Assembly (NCBI GenBank): GCA_051382335.1 | Contig: JBBCAX010000045.1 | Location: 1 to 61,829, forward strand | From: Deltaproteobacteria bacterium TL4 | GTDB lineage: Bacteria > SAR324 > NAC60-12 | Direction: 5' to 3' | DNA: 61,829 bases | Shown here: positions 46,671 through 61,829 of the stretch, in pieces | Layout: every line of letters starts with the position of its first letter | Numbering within the stretch: position 1 is the stretch's first letter | Made by a program: the position numbers and the translations under genes | The notes under the pieces: generated by a model | What the model saw: the letters and a program-made list of their open reading frames with translations, nothing else | What the model was told of the DNA's origin: nothing | The model's database searches: none

Positions 46671-47783
46671 ATGGCTACGATTCTCGTTAGTTTAATCAGT
46701 GATCAGACCATTCCCAATTTGCTCTTGATCAAAGAATTCTCCCCAAAGATAGATCGTTATCTGATGGTTTCAACACCAAAAATGGAGGGGAGAAAAGTTT
46801 CCCAAGGGATCATCAAAGCTGCTGGTATTTCACAAGAACTATTTGAAACGGTGAATGTCGAAGAAGATTCGCTCGCTGATATTGACTCAAAACTTCGGGA
46901 TTTGAATTTCGATGAAGCAGATCATTTTATTGTCAATTTAACAGGTGGAACCAAAATTATGTCCCTCGGGATTTACAACTTCTTTCTCAAGCGTTCTAGT
47001 GAAATCTATTACATTCCAGGAGGGAAAAATGTTTACCGAAAATTATTTCCTGAAGTAAAACACAAATTGTTTGATATCCAATACCGCGTTGGAGTCGAGG
47101 AATACCTCACCTGCTATGGGGTTGAAATCAAAAATTCCGGTGAAAATTCGATGACGCAATCTGCTGAATACACTCAGGGCTTTTATGAATTTTACAGTCA
47201 TTTTAAGGATGCCGAATTTGAAATACTGGGAAAACTCAGGGACGTCCGTGAGCGAAACAAATTGCCACTGGCAGAGATTGCTGGACTCGATTCTTTTCTT
47301 CAGAAAATCAAATTTCAACCACAACAACCCATTCTTTTGACAAAAAACGAAATACGTTATCTGACTGGAGACTGGTTTGAGGAATATATTTTTGCGAAGT
47401 TACATAACTTGATAAAACCGCAAGACCATGAAATTTGTAAAGGCCTTACCATCCATCGTCAGCAAACGGATAATGAATTTGATGTCATGTTTACTCGTGA
47501 CAACACTTTATATGTCATTGAGTGTAAAACCAGCATTTATGATGGTCATTCCAAAAAAAATGTACTGACGGATGCATTATATAAGTTGGCAGCGCTTAAA
47601 CAGGATTTTGGGTTGTTTGCCCAAAGTTTCCTCTTCACACTGAGTCAGGAAGGAACCAAGAAAAATCAAGTCCGGGAATTGGATAAAAACCGTGCTAAAG
47701 TCCTGAATGTAACTGTCATCGACAAAACGGCGATCCAGTTGCCTTCAGAAGAATTATTAAAACTCATGAGAATAACTTTATGA
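46671..47783 (+). CDS. Card1/Can2-type (DUF1887) CARF + PD-(D/E)XK nuclease effector
   Basis: CARF motifs LVSLISDQTIPN and VNLTGGTKIM; nuclease GDWFEEY, NEFDV, VIECKT. Confidence 0.88.
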   Translation: MATILVSLISDQTIPNLLLIKEFSPKIDRYLMVSTPKMEGRKVSQGIIKAAGISQELFETVNVEEDSLADIDSKLRDLNFDEADHFIVNLTGGTKIMSLGIYNFFLKRSSEIYYIPGGKNVYRKLFPEVKHKLFDIQYRVGVEEYLTCYGVEIKNSGENSMTQSAEYTQGFYEFYSHFKDAEFEILGKLRDVRERNKLPLAEIAGLDSFLQKIKFQPQQPILLTKNEIRYLTGDWFEEYIFAKLHNLIKPQDHEICKGLTIHRQQTDNEFDVMFTRDNTLYVIECKTSIYDGHSKKNVLTDALYKLAALKQDFGLFAQSFLFTLSQEGTKKNQVRELDKNRAKVLNVTVIDKTAIQLPSEELLKLMRITL

Positions 47784-48100
47784 AACTCCTCCTCCTTTCG
47801 ATTGGACGTGATATTGCCCAGAGCGCGGAAAGTCTGTTGGGCCGAAAAGCCGATGCTGTGGTGCGGGCCGGAGAACTGACTCCGGAAATGTATCCTGAAC
47901 TGCGTCGGCAAATTTATCAGTATTTTAAACAGTGGCAGGGAGAACCCCTTCATCTCGTCCTGTCTGGTCCTGTGGATTTGGCGTTCACTTTAGGACAGAT
48001 TATCGGCATCAATCATTTTGATGTTCAGGTGTTCCATTACGATTCGGCGGGCAGAACTTATCAACCCGTTCCGCCACCCACACGTCACGAAATATTGTAA
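47780..48100 (+). CDS. Small stand-alone half-SAVED-like protein
   Basis: LHLVLSGPVDLAFTLGQ...VQVFHYD...YQP resembles the SAVED C-terminal half; ATGA overlap with the Card1-type gene. Confidence 0.6.
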   Translation: MKLLLLSIGRDIAQSAESLLGRKADAVVRAGELTPEMYPELRRQIYQYFKQWQGEPLHLVLSGPVDLAFTLGQIIGINHFDVQVFHYDSAGRTYQPVPPPTRHEIL

Positions 48101-48156
48101 TTTAACGTGTTTATACTTTTGACGGGTTAAAATTTCACTTTCCGGATTAGGGCAAT

Positions 48157-48253
48157 GTAACCGTTTGGCCTGTGAGCGTGAAATCAGTTGTTCCTTGCCA
48201 TATTTTAGCAGTCTCACGGGCACGATGGTTTTGGAGACGCCAAAATCATTTTC
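48157..48253 (-). pseudogene. STAS-like (DUF4325) gene fragment, 5' part
   Basis: ENDFGVSKTIVPVRLLKYGKEQLISRSQAKRL. Confidence 0.75.
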
Positions 48254-48368
48254 TTATCCCTATCTTAAATTCTAAGATCCACTCTTATTTTCTATAAAAT
48301 AGCAATTCCATTGTTTACGTTATTTAGCTAACAAACTGAAATTCAATATCATTTTAAATATTAGCGCA

Positions 48369-48385
48369 TTGGTGCGACTTTTGCC
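48369..48385 (+). promoter_or_regulatory. Putative sigma-54 promoter
   Basis: TTGGTGCGACTTTTGC with GG(-24)/GC(-12) spacing; IHF-like AT-rich site upstream. Confidence 0.45.
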
Positions 48386-48488
48386 TTAAGGTTTAGTGTA
48401 TCATTCCAAATGTTCAATCAAGGCTGCTCACTCAAAGTGGGATAGCAGGATGAATTTGTCTCAACACATTTCAAAAATAAGGATCATC

Positions 48489-49553
48489 ATGAAAACGAAA
48501 TTAAAACCCTATCTTCTGTCCCTCTGCGCAATCCCACTGATTCTCAGTTGCTCCAATTTGCCTCAGGAAGACATGCAAACTGAGGATGTGCCCTCTGAAT
48601 CCCAGGCGCAGCAAACGCCATCACCGTCCACGGTGTCGGAGGCTTTTCCTTCTGTGCTCACAACCAGCCGTGAATTAGCCGCTGTCAATGGATGTCCCAA
48701 CGGCGGTGTGGAAATCGAGTTGGGGATTGATGCCAATCTTAACGGAACACTGGATACCAGCGAGATCAATAAAACCGAAATCCTGTGTCACGGAACTGAG
48801 GGAACAGACGGTGTGAAGGGAGCAAATGGTATGAACAGTCTCATTCACACGACGTTTGAAAATGCGGGAGATCAATGTTCTAACGGCGGTTATCGTGTTG
48901 ATATCGGCTTGGATCAGAACAGCGACAGCATTCTGGACTCCAACGAAATTAGCGCTACAACCTATCTCTGCCAGGGTGAAAAAGGCGACAAGGGGGATCA
49001 AGGCGATGCAGGAAATCAGGGTGAAAAAGGTGACAAGGGGGATCAAGGCGATGCAGGAAATCAGGGGGATAAAGGCGACAAGGGGGATCAAGGCGATGCA
49101 GGAAATCAGGGGGATAAAGGCGACAAGGGGGATCAAGGCGAGGCAGGAAATCAGGGGGATAAAGGCGATAAGGGGGATCAAGGCGAGGCGGGAAAGAACG
49201 GAACGGATAATACCATTGTCTCGTATAAAAGTTGTGTAGAGACATTGGACCAGACAGGGACTTTTTCCTTAGTAATGTATCAATATAGTCAAACTGTCTT
49301 AGCCAGCGGTGATGTATTTGTTGCCGCCACGATTATCAGCACAAGTGGCAGCGCCTCCGTATCGTCCCTGTATCCATCCTATCTCGTCGGAGCGCAAAAA
49401 GGAGCGCAAATAGTGAATCATGACGCTTATGGATCTGCTAACTTCGGATTCTGGTATTTCGAAATGCCGCTGTCTACCACATCCTTGAAAATCACCTACA
49501 AGGATTCGGGACTTCCAGGCGGTGAGAAGACATGGACGAAAACCTGTGATTAA
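48489..49553 (+). CDS. Collagen-like lipoprotein with two Cys-containing Ca-binding-type repeats
   Basis: Lipobox ILS-C; two C..GG....G.D.N...LD..EI....LC units; five 45-bp Gly-X-Y repeats at 48972-49196. Confidence 0.85.
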
Positions 49554-49758
49554 ATCAGGTAGGTCGGTAGGTCGGGTTAGAAACCGCGTGAGCAATGTTG
49601 CAACCCAACAAAAAATTTATTGACAATTTTAGCTTAAACTGAAAGGGAAAAGATATTCAAAGCTTACACAATTTGTGTTGTCATCAATTGAAAGTTTAAG
49701 GAGGGACGACACTTAGCTGTCGCCCTTCCATGGTTTGAAATCAGTGGGGGTCTTGTGT

Positions 49759-49861
49759 TATAGTTGTCCAGATAAATTCCTGCTGGGAGCGCAATCGTCC
49801 CGCCTGCTTTTGCGGGCAAGATGCCCGCGCTCCCAGGACAAAACTTTCCTTGAGCACTATA
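49759..49861. mobile_element. MITE family B
   Basis: tatagttgtccag...gagcactata with ctgggagcgc/gcgctcccag palindrome. Confidence 0.75.
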
Positions 49862-49948
49862 CTTGTCCCAGCGATAAGGGTTCAATCGATAAAGAAACAA
49901 GTTTCAGCTTATGAAATTCTTAAGCCATGAGAATTAGGAAATAAACGA

Positions 49949-52129
49949 ATGAAAACAACTCAGAAAAATAAAAACATTTTGGTGACAACCTTGGGGGGAA
50001 CCTGGTCTATTATTCCTGAGTTGATTGGATTCACCAATCCGGAACTGTTGGATCTCTATTATTTTCATCCTCAAAAACAACAACTTAATAGCCAGCGTTC
50101 TAAGTATCATATTCAGCCCATTCATGAAGTGTGGGTTGTGACCTCTTGTGGGAAAAGCACTAAAAGCGCGTTATCCAAGCTTCAGGAATGGTACTCGCAA
50201 GGATTTGAAGCTCTCAAACTTAGAATATGGCAAGCACAAGGTACGGATCAACTTTCCAATTTAGACGAGTGCTTATTGTTGTCTGAGTTGATTCTAACAG
50301 CAGTTCTTCATGCTTCAGAACAATCTAAAGGAGGTCAGCTTCTACTTTCCCTTGCGGGGGGGCGCAAAACCATGAGTGCGGATATGCAGCTTGCGGGAAT
50401 GACTTTTGGTTGTAATGCGCTGCTGCATGTTATTGACAATGGAAGTTCTGAAACTTATAAAGAGAGCAACCCTTCTCTTTTTTTAAAACCTATTCCACAA
50501 GAGCATGGGGGCCTTTTTACTCCCTTAGTCACTGGAGCTTCTGAAAGAAACCAGGTATTGGATATAAAGGACGAATCGATTCTGGATGTAACTGGAAAAA
50601 ATTATCCCTTAGACATGCCAGAAGGAGAGGCTTCACCTTTAGAAATCAAGCTGACGCCAAAGTTGAAACTTGATTTAGATCAACGTCTGCAACAAGCAAA
50701 AAATCTGATGGTTAATTATTCCAGCAATTTGGTAGGCGCTGATAAGAAAACAAATTTTATGGCGTTATATAACCTTCATCCTCATCTCATTAAAAAATTG
50801 CAAGACTGGAAATTTGGACAAAACCCTCAGTTTGAAAAAAAGGAACTGGAGTGGATTAAGCGGCTCCCCAAGACGGAACTCCATTGTCATTTAGGAGGAA
50901 TTGCTGACGCCTCTGAAATCATCGAAATCGCGAAAGTGAATAGTTCGCTGGTGCTGCCACATAAAGAAAGGTTAAAAGACTGGCTGGAATCATGGAAAAA
51001 AATCATTAAAACTGAGAATCCTAAAACGATTCAAGAACACCTGTTAAAAAATAATTCCAAACCAAATCGTCCTTTTCAGACGATAAGAAATGCTGTTCAA
51101 GGGATTCCAGAACCCATTTGTGTTACAGCTTTTATTTTGCTCTTTGAATCCTGTCCTCTTTTGTTAGATCAAGTTATTTACTTTGAACACATAGATGATT
51201 TTCATTTTTGTAAAATTGGGATTGAGTCTTACGAAAGCCTGGGTGATTTACAAGGATCAGCACTTCTGCAAACAGAATCAGCAATACGAAAGGCTTGGAA
51301 AATATTACTTGAAAAAGCGATTGATCACAATGTTCGATACCTTGAAGTACGTTGTTCGCCAGTGAACTACACTCGCGGAGGTTTAGACGCGATGCGCGTT
51401 ATCGAAATAGGGCAACAAATCTGTGCTGAATATCACCATCAGATTGAAGTGGGTTTAATTTTGATTGCAAGTCGGCATGGAAAAATGAGCACGGTTTACC
51501 AGCACATTGAGTTAGCGCAAGAAATCTTAAATACAAAGACCTCTTCCTCCCTTCCCTTGGTTGGCTTTGACCTTGCTGGAAATGAAAACCATAAAAAGGC
51601 ATCAGAAATGCGGAAAGCTTTTCTGCCTTTAATGAAAGAATGTCTTTACCTGACCATTCATGCTGGTGAGACTGAAGACGTTGAGAGCATTTGGGAAGCA
51701 ATCTATCATCTCAACGCCTCAAGAATTGGACACGGGCTAACCCTAAATGAAAATCCTTTGCTGTTAAAACATTTTATTGATAGAAGAATCACTTTGGAAA
51801 TGTGCCCCTCCAGTAATTTCCAAATTATAGGGTTTCAGGATAATTATTATCCTGAACGAAAAGATTTTAACGAATATCCATTAAAAACCTATTTAAAAGA
51901 AGGACTGAAGGTTACGGTTAATACTGATAACCCAGGTATTTCAAAAACTAATTTTACAAAAGAACTGCATAGAGCGGCCAGATTATCACCAGGAGGTTTG
52001 AACGCTTGGGAATTATTACAGTTAATTCGGAACAGTTTTAGAGGGACTTTCCTCTCACATGAACAATCCAGAAAACTTCTTTTGGATGCAGAAAAAGAAA
52101 TCGTACAAATCCTTAGGAATGAGAATTAA
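49949..52129 (+). CDS. cad1: CARF-adenosine deaminase effector (Cad1/CAAD type)
   Basis: CARF LVTTLG...SLAGGRKTMSA; deaminase ELHCHLGG, HAGE, RIGHG, EMCPSSN, NTDNP. Confidence 0.92.
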   Translation: MKTTQKNKNILVTTLGGTWSIIPELIGFTNPELLDLYYFHPQKQQLNSQRSKYHIQPIHEVWVVTSCGKSTKSALSKLQEWYSQGFEALKLRIWQAQGTDQLSNLDECLLLSELILTAVLHASEQSKGGQLLLSLAGGRKTMSADMQLAGMTFGCNALLHVIDNGSSETYKESNPSLFLKPIPQEHGGLFTPLVTGASERNQVLDIKDESILDVTGKNYPLDMPEGEASPLEIKLTPKLKLDLDQRLQQAKNLMVNYSSNLVGADKKTNFMALYNLHPHLIKKLQDWKFGQNPQFEKKELEWIKRLPKTELHCHLGGIADASEIIEIAKVNSSLVLPHKERLKDWLESWKKIIKTENPKTIQEHLLKNNSKPNRPFQTIRNAVQGIPEPICVTAFILLFESCPLLLDQVIYFEHIDDFHFCKIGIESYESLGDLQGSALLQTESAIRKAWKILLEKAIDHNVRYLEVRCSPVNYTRGGLDAMRVIEIGQQICAEYHHQIEVGLILIASRHGKMSTVYQHIELAQEILNTKTSSSLPLVGFDLAGNENHKKASEMRKAFLPLMKECLYLTIHAGETEDVESIWEAIYHLNASRIGHGLTLNENPLLLKHFIDRRITLEMCPSSNFQIIGFQDNYYPERKDFNEYPLKTYLKEGLKVTVNTDNPGISKTNFTKELHRAARLSPGGLNAWELLQLIRNSFRGTFLSHEQSRKLLLDAEKEIVQILRNEN

Positions 52130-52274
52130 ATAACTTCCCCATTTGCCCTAGCCCTTTATTTTAGCGGGATTTAGTAGAGTGGGCGTCCCGCCCACTTAAA
52201 GCAGCGGGACGCTGCTTCTACCAGATCTTTCGAGCAACTTAGCAAAAGGGGATGTTATTTAATTCTCATTCCTT
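52114..52274. mobile_element. MITE family C overlapping the cad1 stop codon
   Basis: Inverted copy of 29320-29478; its TIR encodes the last codons RNEN*. Confidence 0.8.
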
Positions 52275-52322
52275 AATTCACGGAATTCTGACAGTGTGCT
52301 TCCATTGACCCTTTTATGGTGG

Positions 52323-52516
52323 TTATGACCCCTTTTGTGCTTTTTCGATCATCCGTTGGAGGGTGTCGCTGGTTTCAATGGGGAGGAGCTGAATCTCAGG
52401 GTGTTCCTTGACAAAGACTCTGAAAATTTCATCAGCAAAGGCTTGACCGATCTGGTCGATTCCGCTGAAGTCCAGGTGGATTTCCTTAAAGCGGTCAAAC
52501 CTGGCCAGTAACCGTT
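52323..52516 (-). pseudogene. STAS-like (DUF4325) gene fragment, 3' part
   Basis: RLLARFDRFKEIHLDFSGIDQIGQAFADEIFRVF...*. Confidence 0.8.
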
Positions 52517-52676
52517 CTTCCCTATTATAAAGAATCAAGTACATATCTAATATTCTATCGACCTATCTCTATTTCTACAACAGTGATGAGTCCCCTCCTT
52601 TATATTTAACCATAACATACTGAAATAAAGTGTAATTTTATTTTTAACAGCTTGGTACAACTTTTGTAACATTGAC

Positions 52677-53123
52677 TATAGACGTTCATTTAAATAAATT
52701 CAGAAAACGCATCCTGTTGCGAGATCCGTTTAAACAACGCTGTTTCAGGAGTGCCAAAGCTTGCTTTGGCCAGAAAGGCGAAAGCCTTTCTTTGGCTTCG
52801 GCCAAAGCAAGCTTTGGCACTCCACAGTCTGGGTTAGACTCAAAGGAATTTATTTAAATGAACATCTATAGTGTTTCAGAAAAGTATTTTGGGCTGGGAG
52901 CGCAGGCGTCCCGCCTGCTTTTGCGGGCAGGATGCCCGCGCTCCCAGGAAAGACTTATCTGAAAGTCTATATAAGTGAATTTCTATAAATGGTTAAGCAA
53001 ACAGGGCATTCTGTTTATGTAGAGATGTCCAGAATTATATTGTCCTGGGAGCGAGGGCATCTTGCCCTCCGATGAGGGCGGGCCGCCCTCGCTCCCAGGA
53101 CAATACTTTTCTTGAGCACTATA
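52677..53123. mobile_element. MITE cluster: family A (52677-52870), family B (52866-52971, ~53020-53123)
   Basis: Inverted copies of 3547-3740 and 29215-29320; A and B share a TATA junction. Confidence 0.8.
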
Positions 53124-53155: not shown

Positions 53156-53359
53156 ATGAAACGATCAGATCGAAAGCAATTTGAACCAGAAACCCATGAC
53201 GAAAATGAGTTATCAATTCAAGATCGTCTGGATCGAGAAAAATTGGATAAGATGGAATTGGCTTACCTCATGAACCACGAGTTTTTTGAATACGAACTTG
53301 CAAGAATAGAAGCTGAACTCGTGCAGAACTCTAAAAAAACAGGATCGTATTCCCGCTAA
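53156..53359 (+). CDS. Small acidic hypothetical protein (67 aa)
   Basis: ATG 53156 after AAGGCGG; the upstream ORF extension is MITE sequence. Confidence 0.45.
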   Translation: MKRSDRKQFEPETHDENELSIQDRLDREKLDKMELAYLMNHEFFEYELARIEAELVQNSKKTGSYSR

Positions 53360-53499: not shown

Positions 53500-54651
53500 A
53501 TGATTGTTTATGTAAAACACCAGGGAGCAACCATTAACCGGCATGGACAAACACTGGTGGTTCAGAAGGATGATTTCAAACAGACCCTCTTTGTTCATCG
53601 GCTGGAACTTCTGGTAATCGTAGGACATGTAGAATTGACCTTACCTGCCATCAATCTTCTATGTCGTGAAAATATTGACACCGTTTTTATAACGCTCAAT
53701 GGTCGTTATAAAGGACGTCTGGAAACCGAAGAAAGCAAAAATGTTTTTTTAGCCAAACGTCAATTTGACTCTCTACATGACCATGATTTTTGTTTGCGCT
53801 TCGCAAAATCTGTAGTGCTTGGAAAATTAAGTAATATGGCAACGCTGATTGGACGAATTAAACGGCGAAATAAAGTTATCAGTGCTTCATTTTTTGAAAA
53901 ACCTATTCGGGAAATCTATGATTTAATTCCCAAAGCTCAAACTGCCGAAAGTATAGAATCCCTACGGGGATATGAAGGTTTGGGAACCGCATTGTTTTTT
54001 CAAGCCTATCAAAAAGGGTTTCTTGACGACCTTAATTTTCACAAACGGATTCGTAGGCCGCCTACGGATCCTGTCAACTCCTTGTTGTCGTTCTTGTACA
54101 CGCTTCTGTTTAACAGGATGTATGCCGCTGTTCGAATTGTCGGTTTGAATCCTGCGGTGGGTTACCTCCATTCCCTTGATTATGGAAGACATTCACTGGT
54201 TTTGGACTTGATTGAAGAGTTTCGCTCTATTGTTGTTGAAACTTGTGTGTTGAGTATTTTTAATCTCAAAATCCTTAATAAAGACAGTTTTTACTTTGAA
54301 GATCTGCCTGTAGCTGAACCTGAATTAACCCTACGACCCAGTGTCGCAAAAGACAGTATAGGACATATTTTTGAAAATACGGACGATGGTTATTTTGATG
54401 TCGCTGAACAAAAGGTTGAAGAAAATTCACAATTGGAACATGAACCTAATGAAAAACGCCCCTGTCGTCTAAGACCAGATGCGCTCAAACGGGTTCTGGA
54501 GTCTTTTGAGGAAAAACTTGAAACAGAATTTCAACACCCCTTAACCAACACTCGTGTCAATTATACTGAAGCTATGGTCACCCAAGCTCAACTTTTTAGA
54601 GAATTCATTGAGGGAACCCGAGCTGCTTATCAACCACTACAACTAAAGTAG
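53500..54651 (+). CDS. cas1: Cas1 integrase
   Basis: LRGYEG, RRPPTDPVNSLLSFLY, GYLH, SLVLDLIEEFR. Confidence 0.96.
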   Translation: MIVYVKHQGATINRHGQTLVVQKDDFKQTLFVHRLELLVIVGHVELTLPAINLLCRENIDTVFITLNGRYKGRLETEESKNVFLAKRQFDSLHDHDFCLRFAKSVVLGKLSNMATLIGRIKRRNKVISASFFEKPIREIYDLIPKAQTAESIESLRGYEGLGTALFFQAYQKGFLDDLNFHKRIRRPPTDPVNSLLSFLYTLLFNRMYAAVRIVGLNPAVGYLHSLDYGRHSLVLDLIEEFRSIVVETCVLSIFNLKILNKDSFYFEDLPVAEPELTLRPSVAKDSIGHIFENTDDGYFDVAEQKVEENSQLEHEPNEKRPCRLRPDALKRVLESFEEKLETEFQHPLTNTRVNYTEAMVTQAQLFREFIEGTRAAYQPLQLK

Positions 54652-54778: not shown

Positions 54779-57544
54779 ATGAAAATAATTTTCGGAATGC
54801 ATCTTGATGGTCCAGTGTATCCAGATTTACTTCAACATACCGAAGCCGTAATTGGCGTAGAACAATGCGGCCCCAAGGGACTGCTCAAGACATTGGAAGT
54901 CAAGTTAGGCTTGGGGAGTAAAGGGGTCAGTGAAGCAGAACGCATCGAACAATATCGTCACCGATTACAGCATTGGGCACAACAGAATGAATGTTTCTAT
55001 CGATCATCTTTAGCAGTCGATAGTACAACAGTCGCGTTGACCTTACTTTCGTGGCGGGATGACCTGATTCTTTATGGATGGAAAACAGACTCTCACGAAA
55101 ATACGCCGGCTCGTTTAAAAACATTGGCTATGGTTGAGGAACTGAAAGATCCCCATGTCCCTGAATTATCGCCAGGCTTTTCAGATCGTATGCGGACGGT
55201 TCTTGTCCATCTTCCGCAGGAGCTGATTGATCTTCAGACGGTTCATGTGACTGGCCTTCGAAACGATTATCCTGCTCCCTGGCTTGAGCTTTTCAGCAAA
55301 CTTGAAGAAAGCAAGGTTCAGCTTACAGAAGATCGGCCCTTGAAAATAAAGGCCTCAGGCGATTTGGGGCAACTCCAGAAACTATTATTGGCTCATAACA
55401 AAAGGTCAGAAAAACGAATTTTGCAGGGAGATGGTTCTTTGGTAATTCTCAGAAGTGCGTCTGAAACACAAGCCTCCGATGTCTTATCCAATTGGCTTTT
55501 TGAGTATGCTAAGCCTTCATCATTACTTATTGTGCCTGAAGAAGAAATGGCACTGGACCAGGTTCTGATGGAGCAAGGACTTCCCTCTTTAGGAATAAAC
55601 AGAAATTCTAAAAACCGTCCTGTTCTACAACTTATTCCCTTAGCATTTGCTTTACGTTGGGAGCCTCTTAATCCCTTTCGTCTTTTGGAGTTTCTCAGCC
55701 TTCCTGAAAATCCGCTTTCTCAAAATCTGAGCCGACGTTTGGCGGAAGTCGTTGCGGCACAACCTGGAATTGGCGGAGAGTTGTGGAACGACACGATTGA
55801 TTCCTGGCTTCAATCAATCCGGATTCGGAGCAAAGAAAACCAGGAAAAGGAGGGAACCGCAATTACAGCTCAAGCACTTGAAGACGAATGGATTCAAGGG
55901 GAAAACCAAACAAAGCAGGACCTAACGAAATGGCTCCAGGGTAAACGCTTTAATCCAGAAATTGGAATTCCACGGCAACAGGCTACAGAATGGGCTCAAC
56001 AGCTTAAAGCGTGGGCACACATGCGGCTTCACAGAAAAGTTAACGAGATTACACCAGGAATGTCCCTTTTGGTTTCTCAACTCTCACAGCTCATCAAGCT
56101 CATTGCTCAGGCAAAAGAAGAACATCTCAATGAACTGCTGCTCCAGCATTTAATTGACTTAGTCCAAGGTAGAGGAACGGCTTTATCAACCATCCGACGA
56201 GAGGCGGGGCATATTCCCTTCGTGAATCATCCTGAGGCCGTTATTGGTGAGGTAGACCAAATTATCTGGTATGATTTTGTAAAGGAGCAGGCTTTTCAGC
56301 CTTTTCGCAGGGTCTGGAATTCTGAAGAAAGCGCTTATTTGGCGGAAAGAGGGATTTTATTACCAAGTTTGCAAGCCCAAGCAAACCTCATCTTCAAAGG
56401 CATGCGACCTCCTTTTTTTCTCGCAAAGCAAAGGCTTATATTGGTCATTCCAGAAAAGGTTCGAGGGGATGAGGTCTCACCGCATCCACTCTATGAGCTA
56501 CTGTCAGTCTGCTTTGAAAACTTACACACCCTTGAATTTTCGCCTAAACAGTGGCTTGAGGGGCGCCAAAAAATTATAGAAGCGTTGAATACAAAGAAGC
56601 TTGAAATTCGAAAATTGCCTGAAGCCCGTCGATGGTGGAAATTATCCAAGGGATCCTTATTGGAACAAAAAAACTCAGAATCTTACTCAAGTCTGGACGC
56701 TCTGTTTTATTATCCCTTCAAATGGGTCCTTCAACATCAGGCAAGATTAGAGTCTGGAACCTTCCTCAGTGTAGATGATGGCAATTCTCTAAAAGGAAAT
56801 CTGGCTCATCGCATCATACAGGAACTGCTAAAATCGGAGGGTCCTCTGGAACAAGGGAGTCCTGCAAGATTAGAACAATGGTTGGATCACCATTTACCTT
56901 CCTTACTGAATCAGTATGGCGCGGTGCTGCAACTACCTGGGAGAGAAATGGAGCGAACACGCTTTGCTCAATTCCTCACACAAGCCGCCAGAACTTTAGT
57001 TTCATTCATTAAGGTTAATGGATGGCAAATCGGTGAACTGGAGAAAGAAGTTTCAGGAATGTTGAATAAGCAACCTCTTAAGGGACGAATTGATCTGCTC
57101 CTTTATAACCAAAAAGGGGAACAAGTCGTTGTTGATCTGAAATGGGGGGGTACCCTTTATCGAAAGGCAGAGCTTGAAAAAAACCAGGCGCTTCAATTGA
57201 CGCTCTACGCTCGTATGTTGAATCCGGAAACGTGGCCCCATCAAGCCTATTTTATTCTGAGTGACAGCACGATGCTTGCGCCAAATACACAAGCATTTAA
57301 AGAGCCACTCCTTGCCAGAATGAAAGAGGGCGAAAGTCCTGCCACGCTTTGGCTGAGGATGGAAAAAACCCTGCTGTGGCGTTGGGAACAGTTGCAAGAA
57401 GGCTGGATCGAGGTTCCGGTCGCCGGTACTTTTAAAGATCATGGTTCTTTCTATCCTTCTAATCCTGAACCTCCGGACGATATTTTGCGCATGAAAGATT
57501 CACCTGATCGGTTTAACGATTTTGATTTATTGACAGGCTATTAA
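54779..57544 (+). CDS. AddB-like protein: degenerate helicase scaffold + C-terminal PD-(D/E)XK nuclease
   Basis: No Walker A; SYSSLD...YPFKWVL, GNLAH, KGRIDLL, VVDLKWG, LQLTLY. Confidence 0.85.
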   Translation: MKIIFGMHLDGPVYPDLLQHTEAVIGVEQCGPKGLLKTLEVKLGLGSKGVSEAERIEQYRHRLQHWAQQNECFYRSSLAVDSTTVALTLLSWRDDLILYGWKTDSHENTPARLKTLAMVEELKDPHVPELSPGFSDRMRTVLVHLPQELIDLQTVHVTGLRNDYPAPWLELFSKLEESKVQLTEDRPLKIKASGDLGQLQKLLLAHNKRSEKRILQGDGSLVILRSASETQASDVLSNWLFEYAKPSSLLIVPEEEMALDQVLMEQGLPSLGINRNSKNRPVLQLIPLAFALRWEPLNPFRLLEFLSLPENPLSQNLSRRLAEVVAAQPGIGGELWNDTIDSWLQSIRIRSKENQEKEGTAITAQALEDEWIQGENQTKQDLTKWLQGKRFNPEIGIPRQQATEWAQQLKAWAHMRLHRKVNEITPGMSLLVSQLSQLIKLIAQAKEEHLNELLLQHLIDLVQGRGTALSTIRREAGHIPFVNHPEAVIGEVDQIIWYDFVKEQAFQPFRRVWNSEESAYLAERGILLPSLQAQANLIFKGMRPPFFLAKQRLILVIPEKVRGDEVSPHPLYELLSVCFENLHTLEFSPKQWLEGRQKIIEALNTKKLEIRKLPEARRWWKLSKGSLLEQKNSESYSSLDALFYYPFKWVLQHQARLESGTFLSVDDGNSLKGNLAHRIIQELLKSEGPLEQGSPARLEQWLDHHLPSLLNQYGAVLQLPGREMERTRFAQFLTQAARTLVSFIKVNGWQIGELEKEVSGMLNKQPLKGRIDLLLYNQKGEQVVVDLKWGGTLYRKAELEKNQALQLTLYARMLNPETWPHQAYFILSDSTMLAPNTQAFKEPLLARMKEGESPATLWLRMEKTLLWRWEQLQEGWIEVPVAGTFKDHGSFYPSNPEPPDDILRMKDSPDRFNDFDLLTGY

Positions 57545-57557
57545 GGGGAAAGGTCTT

Positions 57558-60500
57558 ATGAACACACCCAATATTCAAATCATCAGTGCTGGCGCTGGAA
57601 GTGGAAAAACATATAGACTGGTCCAGGAATTGACACAATTACTTGACCCCGCAAATCCGGGGCATATCCGTCCCGATAGCGTTATTGCCACAACTTTTAC
57701 CAAAAAAAACGCGGCAGAATTAATAGAGCGAATTCGTGGAAATCTGCTGGAAAAAGGTTGGACGGACATCGCCAATCAGCTAGAAACTTCTTTTATTGGA
57801 ACAGTTCATTCTGTCTGTGAGCAATTATTAAAGCAATTTGCCTTTGAAGCAGGGTTATCGCCTAAATTGGAGGTCATCCCCAAGGAAGAACAAAATCTGT
57901 TATTTCAACAGGCTTTGTCCGCACTGATCGATGAACGCCTAGAACAATTGTCGCAAATCAGCTACCGTTTCCATGACGAACTGGATTGGCCTTGTGTTGT
58001 CAGAACCATTGCTGAGGCCGCAAGAACCAATAACCTGAAGCAAGAGGATCTGCTTGCCTGTGCTCAACGTTCTTTGGAGGCTTTGATGCGTTTTTATCCT
58101 GAGTCCTCTAACGAAACACCTGAAGCTATGGACCAACAACTTTTGAGTATTATTGAACAAGCCCTTGAAGACACACAGCAAGTCGGAGATTCAACAAAAA
58201 CCACAGCGGAGTATTTAACTTTTTTGGAAATCATCGCAAATTCGCTCAAACAAAATCGTCCTGTCCGTTGGTCAGAATGGGTCAAATTAACCAAAGCGGA
58301 ACCAGCAAAACGATCCATCGCTTCAAGTAATTCAGTCAGGCAATATACCTTGAAACACCGTGAACATCCAAGACTTCACGCTGATCTCAAGTTATGGATT
58401 ACCCTTGTTTTTGACTTAGCCGCAGAAAGCCTGACCCATTATCAAGAGTTTAAACAAAAAAGGGGTTTGATTGACTTTGGGGATCAAGAAGTTTTGCTCT
58501 TAAACTTACTGGAGCATCCTGAAGTACAGAAGCAATTACAGGAGGAGATTGCTGTTTTGATTGTTGACGAATTTCAGGATACGAATCCGATTCAGTTAGC
58601 AATTTTTTTGAAACTCAGTCACTTGGTAAAACGTTCGATCTGGGTTGGAGACCCCAAACAATCCATCTATGCTTTTCGTGGCGCTGATCCCGCCTTGATG
58701 GCGTCCGTGGTTCAGGCGATTGGCATACAAAAAGACGATATTCTTGGCACCTCTTATCGCTCACGGAAAGCTTTGGTAGACTTCACCAATGCTTTATTTA
58801 TTCCAGCCTTTTTAAAACTCAAGCTCCCCATAGAGCAAATTCAATTATCCTCAGACAGAACGTTGGATGCTTCAGAATTACAACCCGCGCTTCAACATTG
58901 GAAAATTGAGGCAAAAAATAAAGCACAAATGACTGCGGCAATGGCCAACGGAATTTTTAATTTACTGAAAGAACCCTGTCACGTCTGGGACAAAAATGAG
59001 CAAAAAATTCGCCCAATACGTCCTAATGACATTGCGATACTGTGTCGAACCCATGAGGATTGTGCCGAGATGGCTCGGGCTTTAACGGCAATGAGGTTAC
59101 CTGTCGCCTTAGCACAGGAGGGGTTAATCTTAACACCTGAAGCCAAATTGGTTTTAGCGGCATTAAGAAAATTGCTTGACACCAACGACACTTTGGCAAC
59201 GGCTGAAATTTTGATTCTTACGGAACATGACCTCCAACCCGAAACTTGGCTGGAAGATCGCTTAAACTATTTGCAGACACAGCAACCCTCCTCTTCCTGG
59301 AAATCAGATCACACCGTCATTGCCGCAATTGAACGATTGCGGCCTTTGCTGAACGAGTTTTCCCCCTCCGAAGCTTTGGATCACCTCATTGAAAAGCTGG
59401 ACCTTCGTCGGATGATCGCAGGTTGGGAAAACCCGGAACAACGCTTTAGTAATCTGGAAGTGTTGCGAAGAATGGCAGGTGAGTATGAAAAGAGCTGTGA
59501 GCGAATGGGAAGTGCTTCAACCGTGAGTGGCATGTTATTGTGGCTGCGGAATTTGGAAAAGGGTGGGAATCAGGGAATGGAAACTCAGAAGGACGCGATT
59601 GACGTATTAACTTACCATACCGCCAAAGGATTGGAATGGCCTGTTGTTGTAGTCTGGGGACTTGAAAAGGATTTGAAAACCCGTCTGTGGAGTGTCGAAA
59701 TTATTGATGAACGACTGGAAAATAAACAACCGATTGACCTCGAACAGCCCTTGGCGAATCGCTGGATTCGCTATTGGCCTTGGCCCTATGGAAAACAAAA
59801 AAAAGAAACGGGATTACAGGAACAAGTGGAACAATCTCCAATTTATGACAAAGCTTTCTTTGCTGCCCAAACAGAAGAATTGCAGCTTCTTTATGTTGGC
59901 ATGACCCGAGCGAGAGATTATTTAATCCTTCCCATTCGCAAAACACCAACACAATGGTTGGACCTTGTTTTGGAAATGGGAAATCACCAACTGAATTTTC
60001 CCACCAGCCCCGGAATGTCTCAGCTAACTTTAAATGCTTCCAAACTGGAGCTCTTTACTCTTGAACCCAAAGAGGCAGATTCTGTTTTGGATCCATTGCC
60101 GATCGTTACCTGGGTTAAGGCTCGAAAAGGTCGTCAATATGCTCCACAGACGCCTGTCGCGCCCTCTTCCCTTGTGCCTGATGATGCGTCTCCTGTAAAG
60201 CTTGGAGCAACCATTGCTGTGCGCCACAGGGTCGCTATTACAGGAAATCCAGAGATGGATCAACTGGGAAATGCCTTACATGCCTTCTTGGCAGCAGATC
60301 ACCAAACATCAACTCCTGAGAAAAGACAACGGATGCTGGTAGGCTTGTTGGAACGTTTTGGTGTAAAAGGAAGTGTTCTTGTTGAGGATGTGATTCATTA
60401 TGTTGACGAATTTTATAAATTAATTGAAACCCGGTTCCACCCTATAAAAATGCTGCGGGAGTGTCCTCTTCAAATGAAATGGGAAAATCAAATTCTTAAA

Positions 60501-60722
60501 GGAACTGCGGACTTGCTTTTGGAAACGACGGATGGATGGGTTGTCATTGATCATAAATCCTATCCTGGAAAACGAAATCACTGGGCTGAAGAAGCCATAA
60601 AATATTCAGGGCAACTCAAAGCCTATGCTGAAGCTGTAAACGCGGCTACCCAAAAACAGGTTATCGCAACCTACCTCCACTTTGCCCTTGGAGGAGGTTT
60701 GGTAGAAGTACAGTTCTCTTGA
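57558..60722 (+). CDS. AddA-like UvrD/SF1A helicase with C-terminal RecB-type nuclease
   Basis: AGAGSGKT, VDEFQDT, VGDPKQSIYAFRGAD, HTAKGLEW, LYVGMTRARD; GTADLL, VIDHKS, QLKAY. Confidence 0.93.
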   Translation: MNTPNIQIISAGAGSGKTYRLVQELTQLLDPANPGHIRPDSVIATTFTKKNAAELIERIRGNLLEKGWTDIANQLETSFIGTVHSVCEQLLKQFAFEAGLSPKLEVIPKEEQNLLFQQALSALIDERLEQLSQISYRFHDELDWPCVVRTIAEAARTNNLKQEDLLACAQRSLEALMRFYPESSNETPEAMDQQLLSIIEQALEDTQQVGDSTKTTAEYLTFLEIIANSLKQNRPVRWSEWVKLTKAEPAKRSIASSNSVRQYTLKHREHPRLHADLKLWITLVFDLAAESLTHYQEFKQKRGLIDFGDQEVLLLNLLEHPEVQKQLQEEIAVLIVDEFQDTNPIQLAIFLKLSHLVKRSIWVGDPKQSIYAFRGADPALMASVVQAIGIQKDDILGTSYRSRKALVDFTNALFIPAFLKLKLPIEQIQLSSDRTLDASELQPALQHWKIEAKNKAQMTAAMANGIFNLLKEPCHVWDKNEQKIRPIRPNDIAILCRTHEDCAEMARALTAMRLPVALAQEGLILTPEAKLVLAALRKLLDTNDTLATAEILILTEHDLQPETWLEDRLNYLQTQQPSSSWKSDHTVIAAIERLRPLLNEFSPSEALDHLIEKLDLRRMIAGWENPEQRFSNLEVLRRMAGEYEKSCERMGSASTVSGMLLWLRNLEKGGNQGMETQKDAIDVLTYHTAKGLEWPVVVVWGLEKDLKTRLWSVEIIDERLENKQPIDLEQPLANRWIRYWPWPYGKQKKETGLQEQVEQSPIYDKAFFAAQTEELQLLYVGMTRARDYLILPIRKTPTQWLDLVLEMGNHQLNFPTSPGMSQLTLNASKLELFTLEPKEADSVLDPLPIVTWVKARKGRQYAPQTPVAPSSLVPDDASPVKLGATIAVRHRVAITGNPEMDQLGNALHAFLAADHQTSTPEKRQRMLVGLLERFGVKGSVLVEDVIHYVDEFYKLIETRFHPIKMLRECPLQMKWENQILKGTADLLLETTDGWVVIDHKSYPGKRNHWAEEAIKYSGQLKAYAEAVNAATQKQVIATYLHFALGGGLVEVQFS

Positions 60723-61433: not shown

Positions 61434-61658
61434 TTTTCCGCCAACCTAAATCAAGTTTTTAGACAAAAACATAAGCTATTGATATTAAAAGTTTTTTTAT
61501 AATTATTAAGAATGGGGTTGGCGACTCAATAATAATCAATAATAACAGTAAGTTAAAAATATGGTGTTAAAATGATCACGAAATTTATAAGTTTTTGCGA
61601 GAGGTTGGCGTTTTCAGGGCCTGAAGCCCTTGCAAAATCAAGCCGCGCCAGCTCCTGC
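61434..61658 (+). promoter_or_regulatory. CRISPR leader
   Basis: AT-rich non-coding region between cas2 and the first repeat; recurring GGTTGGCG motif. Confidence 0.8.
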
Positions 61659-61829
61659 CTAAGAACTGACCTGATTTAAGAAGGGATTACGACAACAACG
61701 TCTGCGCCTCGTTCAGCATGTACTCTTCGACTAAGAACTGACCTGATTTAAGAAGGGATTACGACCCTAGACTGTTAAGCGGTTCCCGCTAGAGGTTCCT
61801 TACTAAGAACTGACCTGATTTAAGAAGGG
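61659..61829 (+). CRISPR. CRISPR array start; repeat (A)CTAAGAACTGACCTGATTTAAGAAGGGATTACGAC (35-36 bp), 36-37-bp spacers, cut by the window end
   Basis: Repeats at 61659, 61731, 61803 (partial) separated by two unique spacers. Confidence 0.97.

Follow-up and report, generated by a model that had tools for sequence, protein, structure and literature searches.

A split DUF4325 gene remnant marks a rearrangement around cad1 in a bacterial type III-A CRISPR locus

How does a gene for a type III effector come to lie in a segment whose two ends carry, in swapped order, the halves of an unrelated gene? This question is raised by cad1 in the type III-A CRISPR locus of Deltaproteobacteria bacterium TL4 (assembly GCA_051382335.1, genome G000 in our collection), on contig JBBCAX010000045.1, of which all 61,829 nucleotides form the window analyzed here. 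The nine bases GTAACCGTT are found at 48157-48165 and again at 52508-52516, exactly where an earlier note on this DNA had placed them, and flank a segment of ~4.35 kb that carries cad1 and a lipoprotein gene. That note regarded the segment as an integrated circle with cad1 as its foreign cargo. The rearrangement scar is real and can be read to the base because the cut fell in a freshly broken gene. The swapped halves are indeed most simply obtained if a circle, or a double crossover to the same effect, was opened at the 9-mer, but the notion of foreign cargo fares poorly, since this cad1 clusters with the copy found alongside the closest cas1.

The 9-bp repeat by itself is cheap: 261 pairs of identical 9-bp words spaced 3-6 kb apart occur within the 44-58 kb part of the window, and a random stretch of 200 bp contains a median of 10 such matches to the segment. 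What exceeds chance is the gene context. Inside the repeats lie two pieces of a DUF4325 gene, in swapped order, the downstream one within a 73-aa open reading frame (ORF) recognized by the Pfam DUF4325 model (E 4.5e-15). Searched separately, the pieces (48158-48253 and 52326-52517) map end to end in all 12 homologous loci, which were taken from fetched genome contigs; the only overlap is the codons of the repeat, and both pieces are 49-68% identical to these homologues. This exact abutment across the repeat in 12 of 12 loci rules out chance as the source of the swapped order. The parent is an HTH-HATPase-DUF4325 protein of ~345 aa. The earlier description of a split STAS-like gene thus holds as far as the joining of the swapped halves goes, but not for the gene as a whole: only its last 93 codons exist, so that closing the circle would restore a remnant rather than a gene. 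The first ~250 residues of the parent were not found in the genome with five homologue queries, which retrieved only a distant family member on contig C184.

The segment and its right flank are linked by a paralogy absent from the earlier note. Two AT-rich regions, X1 inside the segment and X2 outside it, each lie directly to the right of a DUF4325 piece and are identical at 97 of 144 aligned columns (67%), a value that none of 5000 AT-rich control windows reaches; they have in common an exact 7-mer, TCCCTAT, at their left edges (48257 in X1 and 52519 in X2). Since one copy belongs to the segment and the other to the right flank, the circle would be tied to this very locus. X1 and X2 are likely paralogous promoters, as both contain a sigma-54-type motif and the genome encodes a sigma-54; the -24/-12 pattern used is the one that we take to be typical of this sigma factor, and it has 104 matches across the genome. 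No third copy was recovered with an X1/X2 profile in the genome or in 175 fetched loci, and a search of 88 class genomes with X1 returned seven matches of 22-31 bp (E 0.002-0.009) that we judge to be due to chance, none being credible in the 87 other genomes.

The gene appears to have been cut recently, because its pieces are as well preserved as intact genes. Their summed profile score is 179.9, with no stop codons, compared to 159-181 for 11 intact genes, although the profile was built from proteins found via the downstream piece and therefore flatters the score of that piece; the upstream piece alone also falls inside the intact-gene range. Among 440 copies subjected to simulated random decay of 5%, none reached 179.9, and at 16.5%, the per-copy value implied by the divergence of X1 and X2, 83 of 440 stayed open and, again, none attained the observed score. 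The contrast between intact pieces and X copies that are 33% diverged implies a recent break of the gene and a long-past split of X1 and X2. The nine bases of the repeat are identical in only 1 of the 55 pairs among 11 homologues; this rarity and the recent break both argue for one gene cut once, not two old paralogues. A comparison of whether both pieces favor the same homologues was uninformative (rho 0.17, p 0.06).

The kinship of cad1 bears on whether it arrived or was already there. In a quick tree of 56 rows (the matches covering at least 85% of the query, out of 70 loci offered), it is the sister of cad1 from a relative, G015 (SH-aLRT, the Shimodaira-Hasegawa-like approximate likelihood ratio test, 95), and the cas1 of G015 is also the closest, at 70.5%, among the 18 loci containing both genes. 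The GC content at third codon positions is 0.35 in cad1 and 0.32-0.38 in cas10, card1 and cas1, compared to 0.49-0.59 in the lipoprotein gene and the DUF4325 pieces. Given this relationship and the codon composition typical of the cas genes, cad1 looks resident in this locus. Three of the 88 class genomes, each from this family, have a full-length cad1, and a fourth has a match to the CARF domain only. In G015, the cmr genes are followed by cad1, another effector gene, cas1 and two cas2 genes; cad1 immediately precedes cas1 in G020 and in loci L101 and L102, and in L099 a gene for a protein consisting only of a SAVED domain stands alone between them. In G004 (contig C71; L143 13400-14020), the match, between cas6 and cas10, is limited to residues 6-183, the CARF part of cad1. 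Separately, contig C27 of G015 contains a 7.08-kb inverted copy of its cad1-cas1-cas2 region (L016 1843-8923 versus L017 10912-17991), 99.97% identical and reaching the contig end, which is either an assembly artefact or a recent duplication.

We favor, with moderate confidence, a local origin: the block would have looped out of this same locus and gone back once through a chance 9-bp microhomology. The precursor would have read saved, core (the nine bases), X1, lipoprotein gene, cad1, continuous DUF4325 remnant, X2 and cas1. Recombination between X1 and X2, at the exact 7-mer of their left edges, would have freed a circle, which would then have re-entered through the nine bases immediately left of the X that stayed behind; the same product would arise if sister chromosomes misaligned and underwent a double crossover. 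In either case, the CRISPR locus would keep its genes and their order, and the net effect would be the relocation of a gene remnant of ~100 bp. This model is preferred because it accounts for the swapped halves, the presence of two X regions, where both junctions lie and the kinship of cad1.

Several observations weigh against a local origin. Recombination at 67% identity is inefficient, the longest exact match between X1 and X2 is only 8 nt, and their similarity downstream of the motif is not significant (equaled in 609 of 5000 controls). The left junction has lost most of a miniature inverted-repeat transposable element (MITE), cut 6 nt from the core, so that the pre-integration site is not cleanly preserved in the outer flank; the missing part of this MITE is not present inside the segment. 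The inner arms of the core form a perfect symmetric 5-bp inverted repeat of a kind found at 439 of 332,271 genome positions (0.13%), which hints at a targeted cut, and the model does not explain why both DUF4325 pieces end within ~6 nt of the left edge of an X. The cad1 of G015 is just 50% identical, so that deep residency is compatible with strains having exchanged the gene recently; the collection contains no genome of the same genus as G000, and neither the precursor nor the empty site was seen in it. The bias of the decay profile given above belongs here as well.

Table 1. Features of the rearranged segment and its surroundings (positions in the window)
Feature	Position	Strand	Basis or remark
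SAVED-only protein (106 aa), left neighbor, at the end of the csm-card1 operon	47780..48100	+	Pfam PF18145, E 3.8e-9
First 39 bp of a 161-bp MITE with TATAC...GTATA ends	48112..48150		Whole copies on other contigs; supplies TAG of the claimed left arm
9-bp repeat, left copy, GTAACCGTT	48157..48165	+	Sequence match
Upstream piece of DUF4325 remnant	48158..48253	-	32 codons; ~residues 250-282 of parent; no in-frame start
X1, AT-rich region before the lipoprotein gene	48254..48400	+	Sigma-54-type -24/-12 motif at 48370-48384
Lipoprotein with DUF7151 and collagen repeats	48489..49553	+	Belongs to a family that has about a dozen paralogues in G000
MITE of a high-copy host family	49759..49863		Repeat comparison
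cad1, 726 aa, CARF and adenosine deaminase, uninterrupted	49949..52129	+	Pfam, structure matches
MITE over last codons and stop of cad1	52113..52275		94-96% identical to copies elsewhere in the window
Downstream piece of DUF4325 remnant	52323..52516	-	63 codons and stop; Pfam DUF4325
9-bp repeat, right copy	52508..52516	+	Sequence match
X2, X1 paralogue outside the repeat	52517..52674	+	Source of CCCTA in the right arm proposed earlier; similar -24/-12 motif at 52653-52667
Three MITEs (about 52675-52872, 52867-52972, 53019-53123)	52675..53123		Repeat comparison
67-codon ORF, perhaps not a gene	53156..53359	+	No known relatives
cas1, right neighbor	53500..54651	+	Pfam

The same permuted anatomy would result if the circle had originated in a related strain, in its homologous CRISPR locus, and had introduced cad1 to a locus without one, X1 and X2 being allelic and anchoring an illegitimate crossover at the 9-mer. 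Homology-facilitated illegitimate recombination through stretches of 3-10 bp is described in transformable bacteria (PMC6382021). Effector sets and interference modules do vary among relatives, with type III-A in the window and G004 and type III-B in G015 and G020, and the presence of full-length cad1 in just 3 of 88 class genomes fits such a history. However, cad1 tracks the adjacent cas1 and has its composition, and any donor would have to be near-conspecific, because the MITEs within the segment share 94-96% identity with other MITE copies of the window. We consider this origin unlikely, if still worth keeping in view.

Less probable is a tandem duplication that produced two copies of the DUF4325 gene, followed by two deletions that ended by chance in the same nine bases. 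It would account for X1 and X2 as duplicates, each to the right of a gene piece; the truncation of the left MITE 6 nt from the core is a deletion signature, and every junction stops at the edge of a gene or of a promoter-like region, as expected of selected deletions. If, however, the duplication was old and included the X regions, the pieces should have decayed, and no simulated copy, including the 83 that stayed open, retained the observed score; the rarity of identical nine bases among homologues speaks against it too. A recent duplication would still require two independent ends to meet. The case of two independently truncated old paralogues, raised in the earlier note as one that would undo its reading, is therefore a poor fit to pieces that are undecayed.

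The 9 bp might instead be a target-site duplication, left by a transposase cut in the DUF4325 gene during an intramolecular rearrangement driven by an insertion sequence (IS) whose ends were later lost, which we regard as improbable. The genome contains 25 matches to DDE_Tnp_1 and 8 to DDE_3, a 1278-bp IS on contig C426 with a 9-bp duplication, and two IS families whose duplications measure 10 bp (in 7 of 12 and 7 of 15 pairs). The intact target would have been flanked by the 5-bp inverted repeat mentioned above, and the four bases left of the core are the first four of the commonest IS end and are preceded by a 10-mer that weakly resembles a target (its score is matched by 2.3% of random 10-mers). 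Conversely, neither repeat is abutted by an IS end (terminal inverted repeat), and the flanks lack copies that would mark them as ends of an element family, each having 5-7 scattered matches with 2 mismatches. A search for IS256-type transposases was negative. The core scores like random DNA on the target profile of the commonest IS, and the inverted repeat of the inner arms could arise from two conserved alanine codons.

The inverted arms that the earlier note had proposed for the empty site dissolve into unrelated sequences. TAGGG (48148-48152) and CCCTA (52520-52524) lie 4 nt and 3 nt from the core; the TAG of the former is the end of the truncated MITE, the latter belongs to the start of X2, and 3.5% of random flank pairs have such a five-base inverted word in common. 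Around the core, the outer and inner arms agree at 1 of 10 and 2 of 10 bases. This bears directly on the possibility of a dedicated cassette, moved in trans by a tyrosine or serine recombinase and serving to swap type III effectors. A 9-bp block is within the size of an attachment (att) site, given as at least 7 bp (PMC10111431), and both gene pieces end within ~6 nt of a similar word at the left edge of X. The search of the genome for recombinases suggested earlier returned 12 tyrosine recombinase matches, including two integron integrases above the NCBIfam cut-off (contigs C413 and C186; L025, L027), and 5 resolvase matches; on the contig of the window (C45), no match to tyrosine recombinase (PF00589), resolvase (PF00239), DDE_Tnp_1 or DDE_3 was found, a search that did not extend to the large serine recombinase and IS110 families. 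The earlier report of a cargo of cad1 and a collagen-like lipoprotein with no integrase is borne out to that extent. The two parent sites, however, have no arms in common. No attC site was detected in the 44-58 kb region by a scan that is insensitive, as it found 1 site on the three integrase contigs and 1 in 11 DUF4325 loci. With half-sites that we assume to be those of dif, no XerC-6 bp-XerD site appeared at the segment ends: a XerD-like half with 2 mismatches, such as is expected in about 9% of 200-bp windows, lies at 48260, with no XerC half under 4 mismatches.

Recurrence, too, is wanting. Neither a DUF4325 piece nor the lipoprotein gene was present in any of the 73 other cad1 loci (some of them short, and some the same place fetched twice), and no cas gene or lipoprotein gene was present in 16 DUF4325 loci; none of 16 short DUF4325 homologues begins at the break with a foreign start, whereas the motif just before the break is preceded by at least 31 residues in 119 of 120 longer homologues. 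Together with the lack of a credible X1 match in other class genomes, these counts make a dedicated cassette very improbable, and the proposed route for swapping effector cassettes finds no second instance to support it. A bolder form, in which the left edge of X would be a new recombination site used in trans by a tyrosine recombinase of the genome, such that integrase-free cad1 circles re-arm the type III loci of related strains, is a long shot. Were conspecific genomes to have the empty site without cad1, or the edge reused with other cargo, the scar would become evidence of a direct, testable path by which type III effectors turn over. Finally, although the assembly is a repeat-rich draft of 445 contigs, an artefact can hardly be the explanation, as neither junction lies in a MITE repeat, both being unique in sequence, and assemblers usually work with words much longer than a 9-bp overlap.

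Apart from the scar, the cargo of the segment is ordinary. The Cad1 protein combines PF09623 (CARF NE0113) with PF00962 (adenosine deaminase), matches the solved Cad1/CAAD chains (PDB 9EBT, 9UBL, 9C67 and 8Z3P) with E of about 1e-56, and aligns with 9EBT in the metal-binding and catalytic motifs HCH, HAGE, GH and NTDN, all of which identifies it, from its sequence, as an ordinary Cad1 and a predicted deaminase, one that would be expected to convert ATP to ITP when activated by cOA. Two host MITEs reside in the segment, in keeping with a resident block, and the end of one provides the final codons and the stop of cad1 (52113-52129). More generally, one IS family of G000 is very active, with 74 ends, duplications of 10 bp and a preference for palindromic targets; another has 90 ends, and MITE families of high copy number are present as well. 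Scans of the region for sigma-70 promoters and terminators were uninformative, Rfam gave only microRNA models, under their cut-offs, on MITE hairpins, and a comparison of the DNA of the region with 40 relatives matched only cas1, cad1, MITE-like sequences and a few short weak stretches, the junctions remaining unmatched.

The DUF4325 family has features of its own. Of the HTH-HATPase-DUF4325 genes examined (L039-L049), 8 of 11 have, by eye, TTGACAA two or three times ahead of the start codon; 6 of 11 have TAAC at their end, in some cases with an attC-like hairpin after it, and one such hairpin passed the scan. The remnant in the window also ends in TAAC. The family may be self-regulated and often cassette-borne. 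A full-length homologue used as query had no match in plasmids or viral contigs. Another DUF4325 gene, in one of the 12 loci to which the pieces were mapped (L050 1156-1757), is interrupted by ~600 bp, ~13 codons past the position of the break in the window.

The locus as a whole runs cas6, cas10, csm genes, Card1-type effector, SAVED-only protein, segment, cas1, helicase-nuclease pair, two cas2 genes and array. Between cas1 and the cas2 genes (54779-60722) lie a UvrD/PD-(D/E)XK helicase-nuclease gene and a gene for a 921-aa partner, a pair that we take to be AddAB-like; in G015, G004 and G020, cas1 is directly followed by cas2-cas2 with no such pair between. The array (61657-61829) begins at the contig end, and the same repeat occurs in 184 copies on contig C90. 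The 67-codon ORF left of cas1 has no Pfam, NCBIfam or Atlas match. SAVED-only proteins of ~106 aa are encoded near cas1 in three type III loci, namely, the window, G004 (L143 4909-5229) and L099 (4802-5116), with 56-59% identity. Because SAVED domains can act as ring nucleases (10.1101/2024.09.24.614671), the SAVED-only protein may, by analogy, be an off-switch.

Overall, taken as a one-off, the segment cleanly preserves the trace of a small rearrangement, by a circle or a double crossover, within a defense locus of a bacterium. It shows that defense loci can be reshuffled without an integrase, and says nothing on how cad1 or other effectors are gained. Literature searches on circular-intermediate microhomology and on effector exchange turned up no description of such a cassette; DUF4325 is mentioned in three of the papers searched, one of them together with CRISPR, and none concerns such an arrangement as judged by titles or the beginnings of abstracts.

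How, then, does this arrangement compare with known systems? Circularly permuted insertions derived from circular DNA occur in yeast and cattle genomes, where, as it would here, the permuted order marks a circular intermediate joined at microhomology; those insertions are eukaryotic, larger and moved to new sites, whereas the one in the window is apparently local. Integron cassettes also pass through circular intermediates, this genome encodes two integron integrases, and the remnant, like 6 of its 11 homologues, has the TAAC end seen in cassettes; unlike such cassettes, however, the segment encloses several genes, the crossover falls inside a gene, and the insensitive scan found no attC at either repeat. 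It differs from a XerCD/pdif module in having no XerC-6 bp-XerD site at its ends, and from a composite transposon in having no terminal inverted repeats at the duplication, even though a 9-bp-duplicating IS is present in the genome. Integrase-type islands are delimited by an attL/attR identity block of at least 7 bp (PMC10111431) and resemble the segment in that a short direct repeat, here of 9 bp, stands at both ends and that a reading frame within the element is restored by crossing over at this repeat; nevertheless, what is rebuilt here is a 93-codon remnant, no recurrence was found, and because neither an integrase nor shared arms were found, we do not class the segment among these islands. 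Like the Cad1/CAAD family of type III effectors (PMC11645235), the Cad1 of the window combines CARF and adenosine deaminase domains in a type III-A locus with aligned deaminase motifs; it is known here from sequence, and at 726 aa, with its last codons from a MITE, it is longer (against 600-635 aa). Among forms of microhomology-mediated, or illegitimate, integration, homology-facilitated illegitimate recombination, a crossover in a 3-10-bp match close to longer homology (PMC6382021), would by analogy be the nearest described process. There, the substrate is linear transforming DNA, whereas a circle or double crossover is implied here and the anchor is 67% identical; as in that process, the crossover would have taken place in a short match near homology, with no dedicated enzyme or site.

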